Virus record (IMG/VR): IMGVR_UViG_2660238360_000005
From: a virus
Taxonomy: Duplodnaviria; Heunggongvirae; Uroviricota; Caudoviricetes
Length of the DNA: 12,652 nt
Reading direction: 5' to 3' (one strand)
The translations under genes were made by a program, and so were the position numbers. The notes beneath the pieces were generated by a model. It made no database searches. It was given only the letters and a program-made list of their open reading frames with translations, and was not told the DNA's origin. This document shows, piece by piece, positions 1,641-12,395 of this stretch (the first letter of the stretch is position 1; every line of letters starts with the position of its first letter).

Positions 1641-4112
1641 TTAAGAATCAGCCTGACTCGGGATCAGTTTTTGCCAGATAACTGAAACGTATTTTGCCTG
1701 GTAACGGGCGTCATCAAGTGCATTATGGCGCTCACCTTCGAATGGAATAGCCGTTCTGGCATCGAAGTCTATGGCTTTCCCCAGCTCAACGATTGTGCGT
1801 ACATCGCGATCGTTGTAGTAACGCCACGGGCAGGGGATCCCCTGCCGTTCGTATGAACGGCGCAAAATCGTGTTGTCGAAGTTGGCTCCATTTCCCCAGA
1901 CCTGAACAAAAAATTCACCGGAGTTTTCGTCGATAAATTCCCACAATTGTAACAGTGCATCATCTAACGGGATTTCATCGGTCATAATGGCAGATTGCGC
2001 TTCGCGTGATTGCTTAAGCCACCATTTAATGGTGTCCCGATCAATGACTCCGCCAGCAGTTTCCAGATCGATAGTCTTACTAAATTCCGGTCCCATATCT
2101 CCGGTTTGCGGATCGAAAAATATTGCACCTATTGAGATGATCGGGGCATCAGGATTTTTTCCCATGGTTTCAAGGTCGATCATTAGATGGTCACACGTCC
2201 TGCTGGTGGATGTGATTTCTTGATGACCGTTCACCTTAATTGAGTGATCTGCCGTCTCGCCAGTTTCATTATCGCTATCGTGATGCTGATTGCCGCCAGT
2301 GTTCTCCTTGTGTGGATGTTCAGCGCCTTCCATTTCCTCCGGATCATCTTCCTGAACTTCAATCTGATACTCTTCATCGAATGTTTCCTGGTATGTTGCG
2401 TCGCCCATTACCGCGCCACAATCAGGGCAGTTGCCGCCGCCGGTCTGACCGCAGGCGGTGCAGACTTTTTCCACTTCCTGTTGCGCCACTGATTCAGGCT
2501 GTTTCGTTTCTGGCTCGTTTTGTAACGCATTTGGGCTGTTTTGTTCCGCTTTTTGGTAGTTCCGTTCCGATTCATGCTGGTTCTGGTTCACAGAATCGCG
2601 GGTCTGGATCCCCTTAACCCATTTCGGATCATTCGGGTCACTAATCCCTTCAACAAATTCACCACGTGATGCAGCAAGCAACTTATCGGCGTCAGGCTGG
2701 ATGATATTGGCTGCCTGCATAATTTTGTTTACTTCGTCAGCGGTAACTTTTATCGGCTCTGGTTGTTCTGAATCTTCAGCGGTATCTACATTTTGCGGTA
2801 AGCCCGTGTATGTGCCATTTTTTCGGGCAAAATATTCTTCTTTTGTGATTTCAGTGGCGCCAGCAGCCAGTGCCTTATCCAGACCAGAAAGTTTGTTTGC
2901 GCGACCGTATTTTTCTCCGTCCTTATCTGCGAAGAGGAAATAGAACGGCCCCTCACGCTCTACAGATGGTTCAGCTTCCGGCGCGGTTTCATTTTTTGGG
3001 ATATCAGATACCTCAGTTTCCACTGCATCAGTTTGTGTTTCTGATGACTGGAGAACATCAACAGTGCCCAGGTCTGTTTCTTCATTCTCAAACACGCCCT
3101 TTGTCGTCAGGTATTCGCAGATATATTTGTTCAGTGCTACGGGATCTTTGTGAATGTCGATCGGACGCTCACGGACAAGGCCAAAAATAGTTTGGCGGTC
3201 GTAGCGAAGGGCATCAGGCTGTTTGCGCATTGATGCCGAGATACGCTTCCAGTCTTCGCGGTCGTTGTCGATAACTTCATTTTTTGCCCAGCGATGGATG
3301 CTGCCGTCAATGTTTCCGGCATCCACATCACCAGGCCAGAGAGCGTAGGCCAGTTCGTCATCCAGTGTTTTCCATGTCTGCTTGTATTCGCGATGAATGG
3401 CAGCAATGACCGGGCTGATTTTTCCTGTTGAATTTTCAGTGTACTGTTGATTGGCTCTGGCGCGGGCGAGATCAACAACAGACGTGTATTTTCCGGTTTC
3501 CTTGCGTTCACCTTCGCGACGTTTTTTCCAGATGCGCATCTCTGCCTGAATTTCGGGCCATTTAGCACCAGGAATACATTTATGCTTAACCCACCCAATG
3601 GCGTGCAACTTAAGCTCCGGATACATGGCGTTAACTTCTGGCATTTTCATCAACGCTTCAACGATATGTCCGTCGAATGTTGCCATGTCTTCCTGCAACA
3701 ATTCCTGTGCGCTAATAACCATATCAACGGTGATGTTTTCACATGTGTCGAACTTAACCATGACAGCGTTCTGTACTTCAGGGGCCAGCTTGTCAAAAGT
3801 GACGTTCATCGGATCGGATTCAGTCTCAACCGGGACAAAAGAAGCAGACTCCTCATCCCAGCGGTTTTCCTGCATATATTCAGCATCCCATGAATCGAGG
3901 GCAGGGCGGGGTATGCCAGGTTTATCCTCGCAGACAATAAATTTATAAGCGCAGTCCTGAGCAGCCGGATAATGTTCCAGGAATTGCCAGTGAAATTTTG
4001 CTCGAGCACGGCGTTCGTCGCCAGCTTCAATGGCTGTGGCTACAGCCACAGCGCCTTCTTCCCTTGTTGCCAGTTCGTCAGGAATAGCGGCGCAAATAAA
4101 GACTTTACTCAT
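1641..4112 (-). CDS. RecE-like exonuclease (exodeoxyribonuclease VIII-like) with C-terminal DEDDh 3'-5' exonuclease domain
   Basis: Long ORF; the track starts it at a TTG (4148), but ATG at 4112 has a GAGG about 9 nt upstream. C-terminal ~190 aa (about 1641-2230) carry DnaQ-like motifs I (MIDLETMG), II (GNGANFDNT) and III (RHNALDDARYQ). Central acidic low-complexity region with a C-x2-C-x7-C-x2-C zinc-ribbon motif (CTACGQTGGGNCPDCG, about 2405-2465). N-terminal RecE-family resemblance is recalled from memory, not verified. Confidence 0.7.
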   Translation of the reverse strand: MSKVFICAAIPDELATREEGAVAVATAIEAGDERRARAKFHWQFLEHYPAAQDCAYKFIVCEDKPGIPRPALDSWDAEYMQENRWDEESASFVPVETESDPMNVTFDKLAPEVQNAVMVKFDTCENITVDMVISAQELLQEDMATFDGHIVEALMKMPEVNAMYPELKLHAIGWVKHKCIPGAKWPEIQAEMRIWKKRREGERKETGKYTSVVDLARARANQQYTENSTGKISPVIAAIHREYKQTWKTLDDELAYALWPGDVDAGNIDGSIHRWAKNEVIDNDREDWKRISASMRKQPDALRYDRQTIFGLVRERPIDIHKDPVALNKYICEYLTTKGVFENEETDLGTVDVLQSSETQTDAVETEVSDIPKNETAPEAEPSVEREGPFYFLFADKDGEKYGRANKLSGLDKALAAGATEITKEEYFARKNGTYTGLPQNVDTAEDSEQPEPIKVTADEVNKIMQAANIIQPDADKLLAASRGEFVEGISDPNDPKWVKGIQTRDSVNQNQHESERNYQKAEQNSPNALQNEPETKQPESVAQQEVEKVCTACGQTGGGNCPDCGAVMGDATYQETFDEEYQIEVQEDDPEEMEGAEHPHKENTGGNQHHDSDNETGETADHSIKVNGHQEITSTSRTCDHLMIDLETMGKNPDAPIISIGAIFFDPQTGDMGPEFSKTIDLETAGGVIDRDTIKWWLKQSREAQSAIMTDEIPLDDALLQLWEFIDENSGEFFVQVWGNGANFDNTILRRSYERQGIPCPWRYYNDRDVRTIVELGKAIDFDARTAIPFEGERHNALDDARYQAKYVSVIWQKLIPSQADS

Positions 4113-4204: not shown

Positions 4205-4396
4205 TTAAAGACCTGCCGGGATTTCGATATTATCCTGGTGAATAACTTTATCGACCGGGTAACAGTTACCGGGAATTTTCTGTTCGGTTGCTGCAGTCAT
4301 ACACTCCTGCATTGTCCTGTGAACACTGACTGCAATATCAACTGGCTCTCCGGAAACAAGAAAAACTGTCAGAACAAGCACAAATGCTGAATTCAT
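4205..4396 (-). CDS. Hypothetical small secreted protein (63 aa, N-terminal signal-peptide-like segment)
   Basis: ATG at 4396 preceded by AAGGA with 8-nt spacing. N-terminus MNSAFVLVLTVFLVSG is signal-peptide-like. Start overlaps the stop of the upstream ORF in an ATGA arrangement (4393-4396). Confidence 0.5.
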   Translation of the reverse strand: MNSAFVLVLTVFLVSGEPVDIAVSVHRTMQECMTAATEQKIPGNCYPVDKVIHQDNIEIPAGL

Positions 4397-4581
4397 TGTG
4401 CACATCCTTTTGGCATCAGACGTAAACGAGCCAGCATTGAAACAATGCATATTTTATTTAATAGCTCCCGTTCTTGTTTTCTCTTGTTAATGGCATCTTC
4501 AGTAAATACTGGGTTACTGATAGTGACACCAATTTCAAAACAACCTTCAGACGTATTAACGTTTGGTAATAACGTTTTCAT
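4393..4581 (-). CDS. Hypothetical small protein (62 aa)
   Basis: ATG at 4581 preceded by GAGGA with 7-nt spacing; stop overlaps the start of the downstream small ORF (ATGA), implying translational coupling. Confidence 0.45.
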   Translation of the reverse strand: MKTLLPNVNTSEGCFEIGVTISNPVFTEDAINKRKQERELLNKICIVSMLARLRLMPKGCAQ

Positions 4582-5148
4582 TATCGCGTCCTCAACAATG
4601 AATTTTGTGATGCAGTGCCTGGTGCCTCCAGGTGACGTTAACCAGTTAACAATTAACGCCGGATACAGAGAATCCACCCATAACACTGTTTTTGGTTTTA
4701 ACTGTTCCGCGTGCGCTCAGCCGCATTCACCACATCACAAAATTCACTTTAAAAAGGGCGGCAGAGCAGTCACGGAGTAAAACTGATACCGCCAAACGTC
4801 ACCAGAAAATTGATAACAGAGGGCGTTGCAGCGGGGTTGTCACTTAAGCGTATGGTCAACCTGACAACCCGGTGTCCTCAACGGGGAAGAAATAACCCCG
4901 CCATACTTACCGCCGCACCATTTCGCGGGTTGCCACAACCGGAAGCGCACGGTCGACGAAAATTTAACGACAGGCTATCTATGAACCAGCTACCTCGCCG
5001 TGCGCTTTCGCGTTATGGTCTGACTTTTCAGGGAAATATCCTTTCAGTAAACTGTCAGTGCCGGATGCTCACCCGTGTCCGGCGCACGCACTCCACCTCA
5101 CCCGTGGAGAACTCCTTAATTACCAACCTTAGCTTCGTTGGTTAGCTA

Positions 5149-5367
5149 TTAACGCGGGTATGTAATCATTCTGGCAATGCTTAATGCCGCTGCTTTTTCC
5201 AGATTGGTGATATCCTGCTCCAGAGCGGACAGATTTTCAGCCTGCTTAGCCCTGGCTTCATTGGCCCATTTCAGATCCTGCGCTGCATTAATTTTCTGGC
5301 GCATCCACTCATAAAGTTCATCATCGGTATAGTCTGGCGCGATGATGACGGGTTCTCGTTTCTGCAT
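5149..5367 (-). CDS. Hypothetical early leftward-operon protein (72 aa)
   Basis: ATG at 5367 with GAGGAA 5 nt upstream; third gene of a compact minus-strand operon. Protein has a predicted helical, charged middle segment. Size and position are reminiscent of Rac kilR, but I cannot confirm the sequence. Confidence 0.55.
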   Translation of the reverse strand: MQKREPVIIAPDYTDDELYEWMRQKINAAQDLKWANEARAKQAENLSALEQDITNLEKAAALSIARMITYPR

Positions 5368-5396
5368 ACTGATTCCTCGCGGTGCTGTTTCGCTTA

Positions 5397-5525
5397 TCAG
5401 CCGTTAGATTTTGCCGAACTGGAAAGCGCCTGTTTAAATTCGTTGAAGCTGTGAGCTTCTTCGCCTTCGGCAAGGCCTTCGAAGTATTCTTCGTAAGCCT
5501 TTTCCATGATTGTGTCAAAATCCAT
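5397..5525 (-). CDS. Hypothetical small acidic protein (42 aa)
   Basis: Not in the ORF track (<60 aa). ATG at 5525 with AGGTGA SD; translation MDFDTIMEKAYEEYFEGLAEGEEAHSFNEFKQALSSSAKSNG. Start lies 1 nt after the stop of the upstream 51-aa ORF. Competes with track ORFs 5321-5530(-) and 5382-5579(+), which lack comparable RBS. Confidence 0.45.
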   Translation of the reverse strand: MDFDTIMEKAYEEYFEGLAEGEEAHSFNEFKQALSSSAKSNG

Positions 5526-5526
5526 A

Positions 5527-5682
5527 TCACTCACCTGAGTTTCTTTCCAGCCAGCGACGGGCACCATTTTCGGTTTTAAACGTTTTGCTTTTGGTATACG
5601 TCATTGCGGTGAAGGTGCCGTCCTGGTTTGGAAACACGCCGTACACCAGAGATTCGTTGTTGCCAAGATCGATAGTATCCAT
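5527..5682 (-). CDS. Hypothetical small prophage protein (51 aa; possibly YdaF/DUF1391-like)
   Basis: Internal ATG of track ORF 5527-5763 with GAGG 5 nt upstream; translation MDTIDLGNNESLVYGVFPNQDGTFTAMTYTKSKTFKTENGARRWLERNSGE. First gene of the leftward operon; family name is from memory only. Confidence 0.5.
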   Translation of the reverse strand: MDTIDLGNNESLVYGVFPNQDGTFTAMTYTKSKTFKTENGARRWLERNSGE

Positions 5683-5974: not shown

Positions 5975-6613
5975 TTAAATATCTTGTTGAATTTTAAAGC
6001 ATACGCCCAATATGCAAGATAGATCATCCAGCATAATTGAAGGGTAGCGAGGATTCGTGGGGACTAAAAGAATATCCGGCCCTTCTATCTCCAGTTTACG
6101 AATGACAGGTGTTGTGGTCCCTTTGGGTAAGGCAAGGACAATATTTCCTGGTTGTACGGTTCGATCGGGATCAACAAAAACTGTTGAACCATTTGGGATG
6201 GAAACTCCCCCACCAGATGTTGACATACTGTCACTCTCTAGAACAACTGCAAAGGTATTGACCGGGATTTCTCCGACAAGCTGCACACAAGAGGTTATTG
6301 AGGAATTTTTCATATAATCACTCCAGCTTGCTGCCTGCTGAAGTGATAGTAGCGGAACCGTTTTTATCGGCGGTAAAGATAGATCAAGCGAATCACCTGT
6401 ATTTAACTCTCCTCCATTAAGAAGCCAATTTTCGTTTACTTTCAATATTTTTGCCAGTGAACTTATGTAACGCGAGGACGGCGCTCCTCCACCGTTCATC
6501 CATTGACTTACGGAGCCTTTTGATGCGCCAGTGCCATTGACAAGGTCTTTGCCTTTCAGGTTTAGCGCATGCATACGTTGGGTTATGCGTTCAGATATAG
6601 TTTGCTTGCTCAT
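5975..6613 (-). CDS. CI-type prophage repressor (N-terminal XRE-type HTH, C-terminal S24 LexA-like peptidase)
   Basis: 212 aa. HTH segment ..LKGKDLVNGTGASKGSVSQWMNG..; C-terminal ..ESDSMSTSGGGVSIPNGSTVFVDPD.. (Ser) and ..PVIRKLEIEGPDILLVP.. (Lys) fit the S24 Ser/Lys dyad. Divergent from the cro-like gene. No SD upstream of the ATG, compatible with a leaderless PRM-type transcript. Confidence 0.9.
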   Translation of the reverse strand: MSKQTISERITQRMHALNLKGKDLVNGTGASKGSVSQWMNGGGAPSSRYISSLAKILKVNENWLLNGGELNTGDSLDLSLPPIKTVPLLSLQQAASWSDYMKNSSITSCVQLVGEIPVNTFAVVLESDSMSTSGGGVSIPNGSTVFVDPDRTVQPGNIVLALPKGTTTPVIRKLEIEGPDILLVPTNPRYPSIMLDDLSCILGVCFKIQQDI

Positions 6614-9821: not shown

Positions 9822-10134
9822 GCGAGGTTAATTATCAGGAAGGGCATGAAACGGCGGGGCAAGCAAAAACAGTGGCATGGCGATATCGCTACGTGAAAAA
9901 AAAGGCGTTACGGACTTTCAGGGGAAGTAGTGGTCTGGTGACTGGAAATATGTACCGAAAAAAGAGGATTGTAACGACAGGCCGAACTATGAAATTCAGG
10001 CCTTATTCACTGCCCCGCCAGTCCCGGTTACATCAGAAGAACTGGTTAAAGCTGTGCACTTTTATGAACAACTAAAACGCGAAAATCCACCAGCATCCGG
10101 AAACCTGATTACAGATTCCCAGATAAGGCAATGA
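9818..10134 (+). CDS. ORF interrupted by a -1 frameshift (programmed frameshift candidate or disrupted gene)
   Basis: Frame A is open from ATG 9818. The -1 frame is open from 9931 to TGA 10132-10134 with no start codon and encodes a protein-like C-terminus (..PNYEIQALFTAPPVPVTSEELVKAVHFYEQLKRENPPASGNLITDSQIRQ). The frames are linked by an in-frame A_AAA_AAG heptamer (9958-9964). An A8 tract lies upstream (9896-9903). Confidence 0.35.
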
Positions 10135-10567: not shown

Positions 10568-10624
10568 GACTGCGGGTGCTTGAGGCTATCTGTCTCAGGC
10601 ATGAACACCAAAAGGCAGATAGAG

Positions 10625-10692
10625 AAAAGCCCCAGTTAACATTACGCGTCCTGCAAGACGCTTAACATTAATCTGAGGCCATATCTATGCGA
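10625..10692 (-). ncRNA. sok: Putative Sok-like antisense RNA (boundaries approximate)
   Basis: Minus-strand promoter-like TTGACC (plus 10724-10729), 18-nt spacer, TAATCT (plus 10700-10705) inside the mok-like frame would start an antisense transcript near 10692 covering the mok-like start and leader, as in hok/sok loci. 3' end not defined. Confidence 0.3.
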
Positions 10693-10746
10693 CACATAGA
10701 GATTAGCCTCTTACGGACCGAAAGGTCAAGGAGAAGCAGGCTATGA
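10687..10746 (+). CDS. mok-like short coupling ORF (19 codons)
   Basis: ATG 10687; its TGA stop (10744-10746) overlaps the hok ATG (10743-10745). Much shorter than the mok frame as I recall it from plasmid R1, so the assignment is tentative. Confidence 0.35.
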   Translation: MRHIEISLLRTERSRRSRL

Positions 10747-11345: not shown

Positions 11346-12395
11346 GTGCGGGTATTACTTCGACCTGTTCTGGTACCGGAACTCGGGGTGGTGATCGTTA
11401 AGCCGGGCCGTGAATCCATGCCGGTATTCCACAATACCCGGGTACTGGTGGAGCCGGAACCGAAAAGCATGCGTAATCTGCCGTCCGGGGTCGTTCCTGC
11501 CGTTCGCCAGCCGCTGGTGGAAGACAAAACATTGCTGCCGTTTTTCAGTAACGCACGGGTGATTCGTGCTGCTGGTGGTGCTGGTGCATTGTCTGACTGG
11601 CTGTTGCGCCATATTAAATCCTGCCAGTGGCCACACGGCGATTATCACCACAGTGAAACCGTCATTCACCGTTATGGTACCGGCGCAATGGTGTTGTGCT
11701 GGCACTGCGACAACCAGCTGCGTGACCAGACATCCGAATCACTCGAGCAACTTGCTCATCAAAACCTGTCAGCATGGATGATTGACGTCATCGGTCACGC
11801 AATAAGCGGTACGCAGGAGCGTGAATTATCTCTGGCTGAATTATCCTGGTGGGCGGTCCGAAATCAGGTGGCGGATGCGCTACCTGAAGCGGTATTACGT
11901 CGCTCGCTGGGATTACCAGCGGAAAAAATCCGCTCAATGTACCGCGAAAGCGACATCGTACCGGGAGAGCAGACCGCCACCAGCATATTGAAACAGCGCA
12001 CAAAAAATCTTGCACTGTTGCCTCACGCCCACCAGGAACAACACCCACTACAGGAAAGGACGGTGGTAAGCATCACCGTTGATCCTGAGTCTCCGGAATC
12101 TTTCATGAAGCTACCTAAACGTCGCCGCTGGGTTAAGGAGAAATACACTCGCTGGGTGAAGACACAGCCGTGTGCTTGCTGCGGTATGCCAGCCGACGAT
12201 CCGCATCATCTGATTGGTCACGGGCAGGGCGGAATGGGAACCAAAGCACATGATCTTTTTGTGTTGCCTTTATGCAGAAAGCATCACGACGAACTGCATA
12301 CGGATACCGTGGCATTTGAAGAGAAGTATGGCTCCCAACTGGAGCTGATTTTTCGATTTATCGATCACGCGCTGGCAATTGGTGTGCTGGCCTAA
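11346..12395 (+). CDS. DUF968 (YdfU-like) prophage protein with C-terminal Cys/His zinc-binding motif
   Basis: 349 aa; GTG start 4 nt after GGAGG (11337-11341). C-terminus ..QPCACCGMPADDPHHLIGHGQGG..LCRKHHDELH.. is HNH/zinc-finger-like. Size and position before Q match YdfU of Qin-type prophages (from memory). Confidence 0.7.
   Translation: MRVLLRPVLVPELGVVIVKPGRESMPVFHNTRVLVEPEPKSMRNLPSGVVPAVRQPLVEDKTLLPFFSNARVIRAAGGAGALSDWLLRHIKSCQWPHGDYHHSETVIHRYGTGAMVLCWHCDNQLRDQTSESLEQLAHQNLSAWMIDVIGHAISGTQERELSLAELSWWAVRNQVADALPEAVLRRSLGLPAEKIRSMYRESDIVPGEQTATSILKQRTKNLALLPHAHQEQHPLQERTVVSITVDPESPESFMKLPKRRRWVKEKYTRWVKTQPCACCGMPADDPHHLIGHGQGGMGTKAHDLFVLPLCRKHHDELHTDTVAFEEKYGSQLELIFRFIDHALAIGVLA

Follow-up and report, generated by a model that had tools for sequence, protein, structure and literature searches.

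The Rac prophage carries recE, the gene for exonuclease VIII, with recT next in order. Apart from its nuclease, RecE comprises ~600 residues that are still listed without a known function (PMC11611040). T4 DexA is a 3'-5' DNA exonuclease, and its E. coli homologue EcD, a stand-alone protein, cleaves T4 DNA and protects cells against T4 (Kang et al. 2025, PMC12153337). DnaQ-like nucleases such as gp34 of Salmonella phage epsilon34 are listed as members of lambdoid recombination modules, and sporadic DnaQ-like copies near int, as well as "RecE-2" proteins without a nuclease, have also been mentioned (Zheng et al. 2025, PMC12315714). Here, we analyze a gene in which features of these systems are combined. 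It occupies positions 1641-4112, on the minus strand, of a 12,652-nucleotide stretch of viral DNA (IMG/VR record IMGVR_UViG_2660238360_000005; hereafter, the window), and an earlier, sequence-only reading of the window had described its product as a RecE-like protein ending in a DEDDh 3'-5' exonuclease domain, with a zinc ribbon and without a RecT/Bet partner.

The open reading frame claimed at 1641-4112 is real: its translation gives a complete coding sequence of 823 amino acids plus stop, named "exonuclease" in RefSeq. It starts with an ATG at 4112, with a GAGG ribosome-binding site upstream, and its stop codon occupies positions 1641-1643. RefSeq annotates the same coding sequence in a near-identical prophage, NZ_CP085619. 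A longer, TTG-initiated open reading frame, extending to 4148, was dropped because the ATG at 4112 has both a ribosome-binding site and the agreement of RefSeq.

The C-terminal part of the protein (residues 641-823, positions 1644-2192) is a DEDDh (DnaQ-like) exonuclease domain. Its presence had been deduced from motifs, and a domain search bore it out far beyond chance: residues 642-813 matched PF16473, the Rv2179c-like/DexA family, with 224.3 bits versus a cut-off of 27 (E = 1.1e-66), over profile positions 2-177 of 177. All three DnaQ-like motifs are found in the last ~180 residues, Exo I being D646-L-E648, Exo II W-G-N-G-A-N-F-D746, and Exo III H796-N-A-L-D-D801; the NxxFD pattern that had been given for the second motif was loose, the real string being NGANFD. 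The catalytic residues D646, E648, D746, H796, and D801 show at least 90% conservation, up to full invariance, among 45 homologues of 40-60% identity, and all five align with the catalytic residues of DexA. When the sequence was searched against the PDB, only entries 8kel and 8ken, identified as T4 DexA and its S87A/D90A mutant, were matched (E = 5e-6). Homology to 8kel suggests an RNase H-like fold for the domain.

The part of the protein that precedes the nuclease is only in part RecE. Residues 262-625 align in BLASTP with RecE residues 278-591, with 39% identity over 364 residues and ~85% over the last 150, a stretch that holds a cysteine motif and an acidic tail. The alignment extends no further than RecE residue 591, precisely the point at which the nuclease domain starts. 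The NCBIfam RecE equivalog model NF007259 yielded 281 bits versus a cut-off of 1269, and only positions 271-602 of its 877 were matched. No Pfam PDDEXK match was found in the protein, and the RecE nuclease domain, used as a tblastn query, was negative in the window. We conclude that the canonical PD-(D/E)XK domain of RecE is absent and that a DEDDh domain is found instead, as had been proposed; domain searches revealed no canonical RecE nuclease fold at the C-terminus. The label "RecE-like" holds for residues ~262-625 but not for the first 256 residues, which form a YdfE_N/YdfE_C module that is not detectably RecE at normal thresholds. PF06630, the Exonuc_VIII family of the RecE N-terminus, gave a weak hhalign match to YdfE-type N-termini (E = 0.0017, probability 16%), while a bridging protein, P0230, matches both N-terminus types (E = 2e-33 and 2e-4). 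Remote homology between the YdfE module and the RecE N-terminus is thus possible but not established.

Two recent Pfam families, PF27430 (YdfE_N) and PF27432 (YdfE_C), are assigned to the first 256 residues; these residues had no match in our local Pfam copy, even at E up to 10, and no solved structures resembling this N-terminus were found. Structure predictions were obtained for the N-terminal part of the protein and for a Rad52-like domain of related proteins (see below). The module itself (residues 1-204, positions 3501-4112) consists of an alpha/beta block (1-100) and a helical block (105-204). The AlphaFold predicted local distance difference test score (pLDDT) falls below 50 at residues 205-237, 344-385, and 438-470. 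The middle of the protein had been described as an acidic linker with a four-cysteine ribbon. The acidic stretches and the CxxC-x7-CxxC motif are real, but two folded blocks, residues 245-343 and 390-437, are also there. The first of these, a helical domain (positions 3084-3380) with BLASTP homology to RecE (about residues 278-352), is predicted with pLDDT of ~90. It occurs in at least 25 representative proteins with different C-termini and is common to all other architectures of the family. It is followed by an acidic disordered linker (residues 344-389, positions 2946-3083; net charge -9 to -11 per 40 residues, pLDDT 23-54). Next comes a small beta/alpha mini-domain (GPFYFLF...; GPFYFLFADKDGEKYGRANK...; residues 390-437, positions 2802-2945; pLDDT 76-84), with two hairpin strands and helices, which is flanked by disordered segments on both sides and is missing from K-12 RecE.

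Residues 473-625 (positions 2238-2696), directly upstream of the nuclease, are nearly identical to RecE 453-591 in BLASTP; this pre-nuclease segment is likely the joint at which cassettes are exchanged. It includes CTACGQTGGGNCPDC (residues 551-565, positions 2418-2462), revealed by a motif search and forming a putative four-cysteine zinc knuckle or ribbon with the layout C551xxC554-x7-C562xxC565. The same motif is present at residues 517-531 of K-12 RecE and in nine of 29 family members, diverged ones included. An acidic tail and linker (residues 566-640, positions 2193-2417) lead into the nuclease; over residues 561-620, there are 14 D/E per 40 residues versus 0-1 K/R.

A search of 1.8 billion representative proteins returned 11,670 relatives, most of them stand-alone DEDDh proteins of ~180 residues, with long mosaic proteins also among them. 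Domain scans and pairwise comparisons gave four architectures. The window gene represents type a, a YdfE-type scaffold with a DEDDh cassette. In type b, found in several lineages and exemplified by P0124, a RecE-type (PF06630) scaffold carries the DEDDh cassette. Type c (P0137) combines the YdfE-type scaffold with a PD-(D/E)XK nuclease of RecE type, and type d (P0135, P0150, P0152, P0176, and P0230) combines it with a conserved domain of ~270 residues. The type d cassette is a predicted Rad52-fold annealase: its similarity to Rad52 is sub-threshold only (Pfam E = 0.0034; PDB profile E ~1.2), and stand-alone members of this domain are already named "Rad52/22 family" in some sources. As far as activities can be predicted, scaffolds of one family therefore end in nucleases of either polarity (5'-3' or 3'-5') or in an annealase.

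Protein P0124 consists of RecE residues 1-592, at 88% identity, and a DEDDh domain 98% identical to that of the window protein. Its gene (L009:5001-7418) is located in a Rac-like prophage, with kilR, ydaE, and sieB as neighbors and without recT, ralR, and rcbA. Synonymous divergence between the two DEDDh domains is only 0.06, which points to a recent cassette exchange, and P0124 looks like the product of an exchange within the conserved pre-nuclease segment. A broader and tentative proposal, which we regard as possible but doubtful, is that the non-catalytic body of RecE would be a general recombination platform. It would take up either a Rad52-fold annealase, a DEDDh nuclease of 3'-5' polarity, or a 5'-3' nuclease paired with RecT, one cassette replacing another through recombination in the conserved segment that lies just upstream. 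The DEDDh version would then provide lambdoid phages with annealase-independent end processing that works together with host RecBCD and Chi.

The nature of the cassette is accompanied by a difference in gene neighborhood. The window is the left arm of an E. coli lambdoid prophage and is 98% identical to the prophage adjoining rspB in strain EC32 (L001); insertion on the rspB side is the site of cryptic prophage Qin in K-12, and the source prophage is an intact lambdoid prophage of Qin type. The order of genes on the minus strand is a LexA/S24-type repressor gene (5975-6613), ydfA, ydfB, ydfC, DicF, dicB, a ydfD-like gene, the 823-amino-acid gene, xis, and int. The gene at 1641-4112 is thus the last early-left gene before xis-int. 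The upstream early-left genes (4205-5682; assigned by annotation transfer from L001 and by Pfam families DUF1482, DicB, and DUF1391) are all small, with no annealase among them, and no open reading frame longer than 97 amino acids lies on this strand between the exonuclease and repressor genes. Downstream, a gap of 72 bp separates the gene from xis (1317-1568; Pfam DUF1233 excisionase, E = 1.6e-31), which occupies the place where Rac carries recT, ralR, and rcbA. It is followed by int (2-1297; RefSeq annotation of the near-identical locus) at the prophage end next to rspB. With this gap and with tblastn negative for RecT types, no RecT/Bet is present at the Rac recT position and no annealase precedes xis, in agreement with the sequence-only reading.

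To extend the comparison, DEDDh fusions were examined in the window and in ten further loci or genomes, fetched individually: EC32 (L001), phages HannyBb and 813R8, L009 (the RecE-type fusion in the Rac-like prophage), L012, L013, and L014 (two further lineages), and L051-L053 (three alleles at other attachment sites). In every case, xis-int is directly downstream and the upstream genes are all small, and no annealase was found nearby. The tblastn queries were two RecT types, Erf, SSB, Abc2, two Rad52-like proteins, Gam, and the RecE nuclease, but not the Red-beta, Sak4, or UvsX types. They revealed nothing in the window, in the whole HannyBb genome, or in eight other DEDDh-fusion loci (all but L013), while every positive control was found. 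Neither the window nor the complete HannyBb genome contains an annealase, an SSB, a recombination exonuclease, or an inhibitor of RecBCD, as judged from annotation and from the same tblastn queries (which did not cover Red-beta, Sak4, or UvsX types). The type c gene is followed by a RecT-family gene, recognized with the Pfam RecT profile (E = 2e-36); its similarity to K-12 RecT in BLASTP was not significant. The gene for the type d annealase fusion is preceded by a Gam-like gene and followed by a Gp157-like gene, xis, and int. Wider scans did not broaden this sample: an alignment of the shared mid-domain from 17 sequences contained no stretch conserved enough for a locus scan, and a five-sequence version retrieved only seven Escherichia/Shigella loci. 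The partner rule, i.e., RecT with the RecE-type nuclease and no annealase with the DEDDh nuclease, therefore rests on the individually fetched loci.

We propose, with a probability of about 0.5, that the protein trims 3' DNA ends without an annealase, as part of phage recombination or replication, and that it perhaps feeds host RecBCD/Chi. The gene would be transcribed with the early-left (dicB) operon upon prophage induction or infection. The C-terminal domain would then take nucleotides off 3' ends by two-metal chemistry through D646, E648, D746, H796, and D801, while the scaffold would deliver or tether the nuclease to a substrate or partner. The substrate would most probably be DNA ends, and the job, end processing. 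DNA is favored because the other cassettes of the scaffold, and the stand-alone relatives of the domain, belong to recombination modules. A 3'-5' enzyme destroys 3' tails rather than making them and so needs no annealase of its own, which fits the consistent absence of one.

Trimming of 3' overhangs would, in addition, let host RecBCD load and drive Chi/RecA recombination. This extension is suggested by the absence of an annealase and of a RecBCD inhibitor and by local Chi richness. Seven Chi sites (GCTGGTGG) are found in the 12.6-kb window, at 2202, 7192, 7237, 11513, and 11571 on the plus strand and at 10087 and 11977 on the minus strand, versus 0.32 expected from shuffles; some are closely paired, and one lies inside the exonuclease gene. 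Clear membership in the high-Chi class of lambdoid phages without a recombination module (LLS type, Zheng et al. 2025) was considered and rejected as too strong a label, because HannyBb is not Chi-rich overall.

Several points weigh against the proposed role. We infer the 3'-5' polarity of the protein, and its substrate, from family membership only. RecBCD loading is an attractive but speculative model, and the complete HannyBb phage, with seven Chi sites in 45 kb, displays no enrichment. The partner rule is based on about ten loci, several of which are closely related. DnaQ-type exonucleases usually inhibit, rather than promote, recombination (PMC12315714). Finally, the member that gave the family its name, Rv2179c of M. 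tuberculosis, is an RNA exonuclease, and NCBI often labels the protein "3'-5' exoribonuclease". The architecture of the protein is secure; its role, on which the sequence-only reading did not decide, is a proposal.

The family name bears on a different activity, in which the protein would be an RNA 3'-5' exonuclease that trims phage or host transcripts, for example the 3' ends of the long dicB-operon RNA or host RNAs, during phage development. We consider this improbable. The name of the best Pfam family and the exoribonuclease label, carried by many database records, speak for it, as does co-transcription of the gene with the processed small RNA DicF. Rv2179c itself, reportedly described in 2014 as a small chromosomal RNA exonuclease, was not directly matched when the PDB was searched with E values up to 1. 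Against this reading, the only assayed members close enough for direct alignment, DexA and EcD, act on DNA. Moreover, the other partners of the scaffold, the RecE nuclease with RecT and the Rad52-fold annealase, are all DNA recombination functions, and one homologue of the domain is located inside a recombination module. This homologue is epsilon34 gp34, 57% identical to the C-terminal domain and located in the order erf-ssb-[gp34]-abc2. Stand-alone homologues are frequent in phages (749 records), and in phage F1055 a stand-alone DEDDh gene is the last before xis-int, as the fusion gene is in the window.

The closeness of the domain to EcD raises the question of inter-phage defense. EcD was rebuilt from the published primers; the resulting protein of 189 residues, with Ala at position 78 as published, belongs to PF16473 and shares 38% identity with window residues 644-816 (over 183 residues; E = 1e-37). 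Its gene was found at L048:6401-6970, on the minus strand, and also in L042 and L045, within the early operon of a P2-like prophage, with a cox-like gene, an integrase gene, and a Dam methylase gene nearby. The published "bacterial" exonuclease EcD is therefore itself a phage gene. By analogy with DexA and EcD (HREX), the window protein could degrade the DNA of superinfecting phages, such as T-even phages with modified cytosine, and so exclude competitors. Besides the T4 protection by EcD and its early prophage origin, it is relevant here that DEDDh exonucleases with auxiliary domains can act against RNA phages (PMC13344964). Two residues linked to this function weigh against the reading. Trp152 of DexA, reported to recognize 5-hydroxymethylcytosine by stacking, is replaced by Tyr in the window protein (PWRYYNDRD versus PCKFWNQRD in DexA and IPWCYWNER in EcD). 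The Asp equivalent to DexA D90 is kept as D718, which aligns with D90 and with EcD A78, although this alignment could be off by one residue. Loss of the D90 equivalent, a tetramer-forming Asp, has been linked to the sparing of unmodified host DNA by EcD (Kang et al. 2025, PMC12153337). The gene also lies at the end of a repressed early-left operon, and no promoter-like site of its own was found in a scan that performed no better than chance in this region; its expression in a lysogen is therefore doubtful. Since defense would, in addition, leave the RecE-type scaffold and its annealase fusions unexplained, we view it as rather unlikely.

Homology to DexA, known classically for host DNA breakdown (PMC12153337), can also be taken to mean that the enzyme takes part in host take-over. 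It would then supply phage DNA synthesis with mononucleotides derived from fragments of host DNA and would play no part in recombination. The early lytic-operon position of the gene is compatible with such scavenging, which would, however, leave both the scaffold and the partner rule unexplained. Temperate lambdoid phages are not known to degrade the host chromosome, and we regard this reading as highly improbable.

Over residues 1-256, the protein is 100% identical to ydfE of K-12, a pseudogene truncated by IS2; the 823-amino-acid gene is therefore the intact form of ydfE. Near full-length open reading frames are present in 3537 of 5426 complete E. coli genomes (65%), with up to ten matching places per genome, which places the gene among the commonest E. 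coli prophage genes. Intact alleles sit at several attachment sites and in the free, isolated phage HannyBb. The gene has its own PHROG, and its database names are "exonuclease" or "3'-5' exonuclease"; literature searches on ydfE, PF16473/Rv2179c-like proteins, and RecE with DEDDh returned no study of the protein or the fusion.

The ratio of non-synonymous to synonymous substitution rates (dN/dS) was calculated for the non-catalytic part by comparing the window gene with three diverged alleles. It was 0.02-0.10 in folded blocks (0.07-0.10 in the helical domain and 0.02-0.05, the strongest constraint in the protein, in the mini-domain) versus 0.4-0.74 in linkers (0.71-0.74 at residues 344-389 and 0.5-0.65 at residues 566-640). 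For the DEDDh domain, homologues with 57-63% identity served for comparison; dN/dS was ~0.12, with synonymous sites saturated. We conclude that all folded parts are under purifying selection. This bears on whether the gene is an evolutionary leftover, a product of domain shuffling carried by prophages without a current function. K-12 does tolerate the IS2 truncation of ydfE, and databases contain many fragments. However, the strength of selection on every folded part, the invariance of the catalytic residues, and the fact that intact copies occupy several attachment sites, are found in 65% of complete genomes, and also occur in a free phage, all argue against it, and because of the selection data a relic is the least likely of the alternatives, with a very small chance of being correct.

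As for the remaining features of the window, the ydfD-like gene (4205-4396), dicB (4393-4581), and the small RNA DicF (4756-4807; Rfam, 76.7 bits) lie on the minus strand, with ydfC, ydfB, and ydfA also within 4205-5682. DicF precedes dicB, the ydfD-like gene, and the exonuclease gene in a shared operon, and the DicF-dicB region is an intact version of the K-12 dicBF operon. In the early-right region, on the plus strand, are the sok antitoxin RNA of a hok/sok (hokD-type) module (10574-10745; Rfam, 106.7 bits) and a gene for a DUF968 protein with a weak HNH-nuclease-like match (11346-12395). In related prophages, the DUF968 gene is followed by a RusA resolvase gene, a position just past the window edge; both are recombination-related genes of the early-right side.

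RecE/RecT is a workhorse of recombineering, and the finding of the same body with a nuclease of opposite predicted polarity opens the function of the RecE body to comparison and to domain swaps. The matter concerns a very common E. coli prophage gene, the parent of K-12 ydfE. If the protein processes ends for RecBCD/Chi, the recently described class of lambdoid phages that depend on recombination by the host would gain a component encoded by the phage itself. If it acts in defense, it would represent an exclusion factor of wide distribution. The new elements here are the cassette picture and the partner rule; the gene itself is known and already named exonuclease.

Compared with known systems, the window protein shares its Pfam family and DEDDh chemistry with Rv2179c, and its Pfam family and catalytic residues with T4 DexA and EcD. 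EcD, like the window protein, is the product of an early prophage gene, but DexA and EcD are stand-alone proteins of ~190-227 amino acids, whereas the window DEDDh domain ends an 823-amino-acid scaffold. Epsilon34 gp34, also encoded by a lambdoid early-left gene, is a literature-recognized 3'-5' nuclease of recombination modules with a homologous domain; it stands alone beside Erf, SSB, and Abc2, three proteins that the phage of the window lacks, and the window domain is joined to a RecE-type scaffold. With Rac RecE, the protein shares its position, each being encoded, in a lambdoid prophage, by the final large gene of the early-left region ahead of xis-int, and also the central region, the CxxC-x7-CxxC layout, and the acidic tail. 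The N-terminus of Rac RecE is PF06630, in contrast to the YdfE module that makes up the first 256 residues here. Rac RecE has a PD-(D/E)XK nuclease and RecT, neither of which accompanies the 823-amino-acid protein, and the absence of the PD-(D/E)XK nuclease gives the latter a predicted polarity (3'-5') opposite to that of RecE. Since an exonuclease annotation already exists for the gene and known families account for its parts, we conclude that it represents a variant of these systems rather than a new kind of system.

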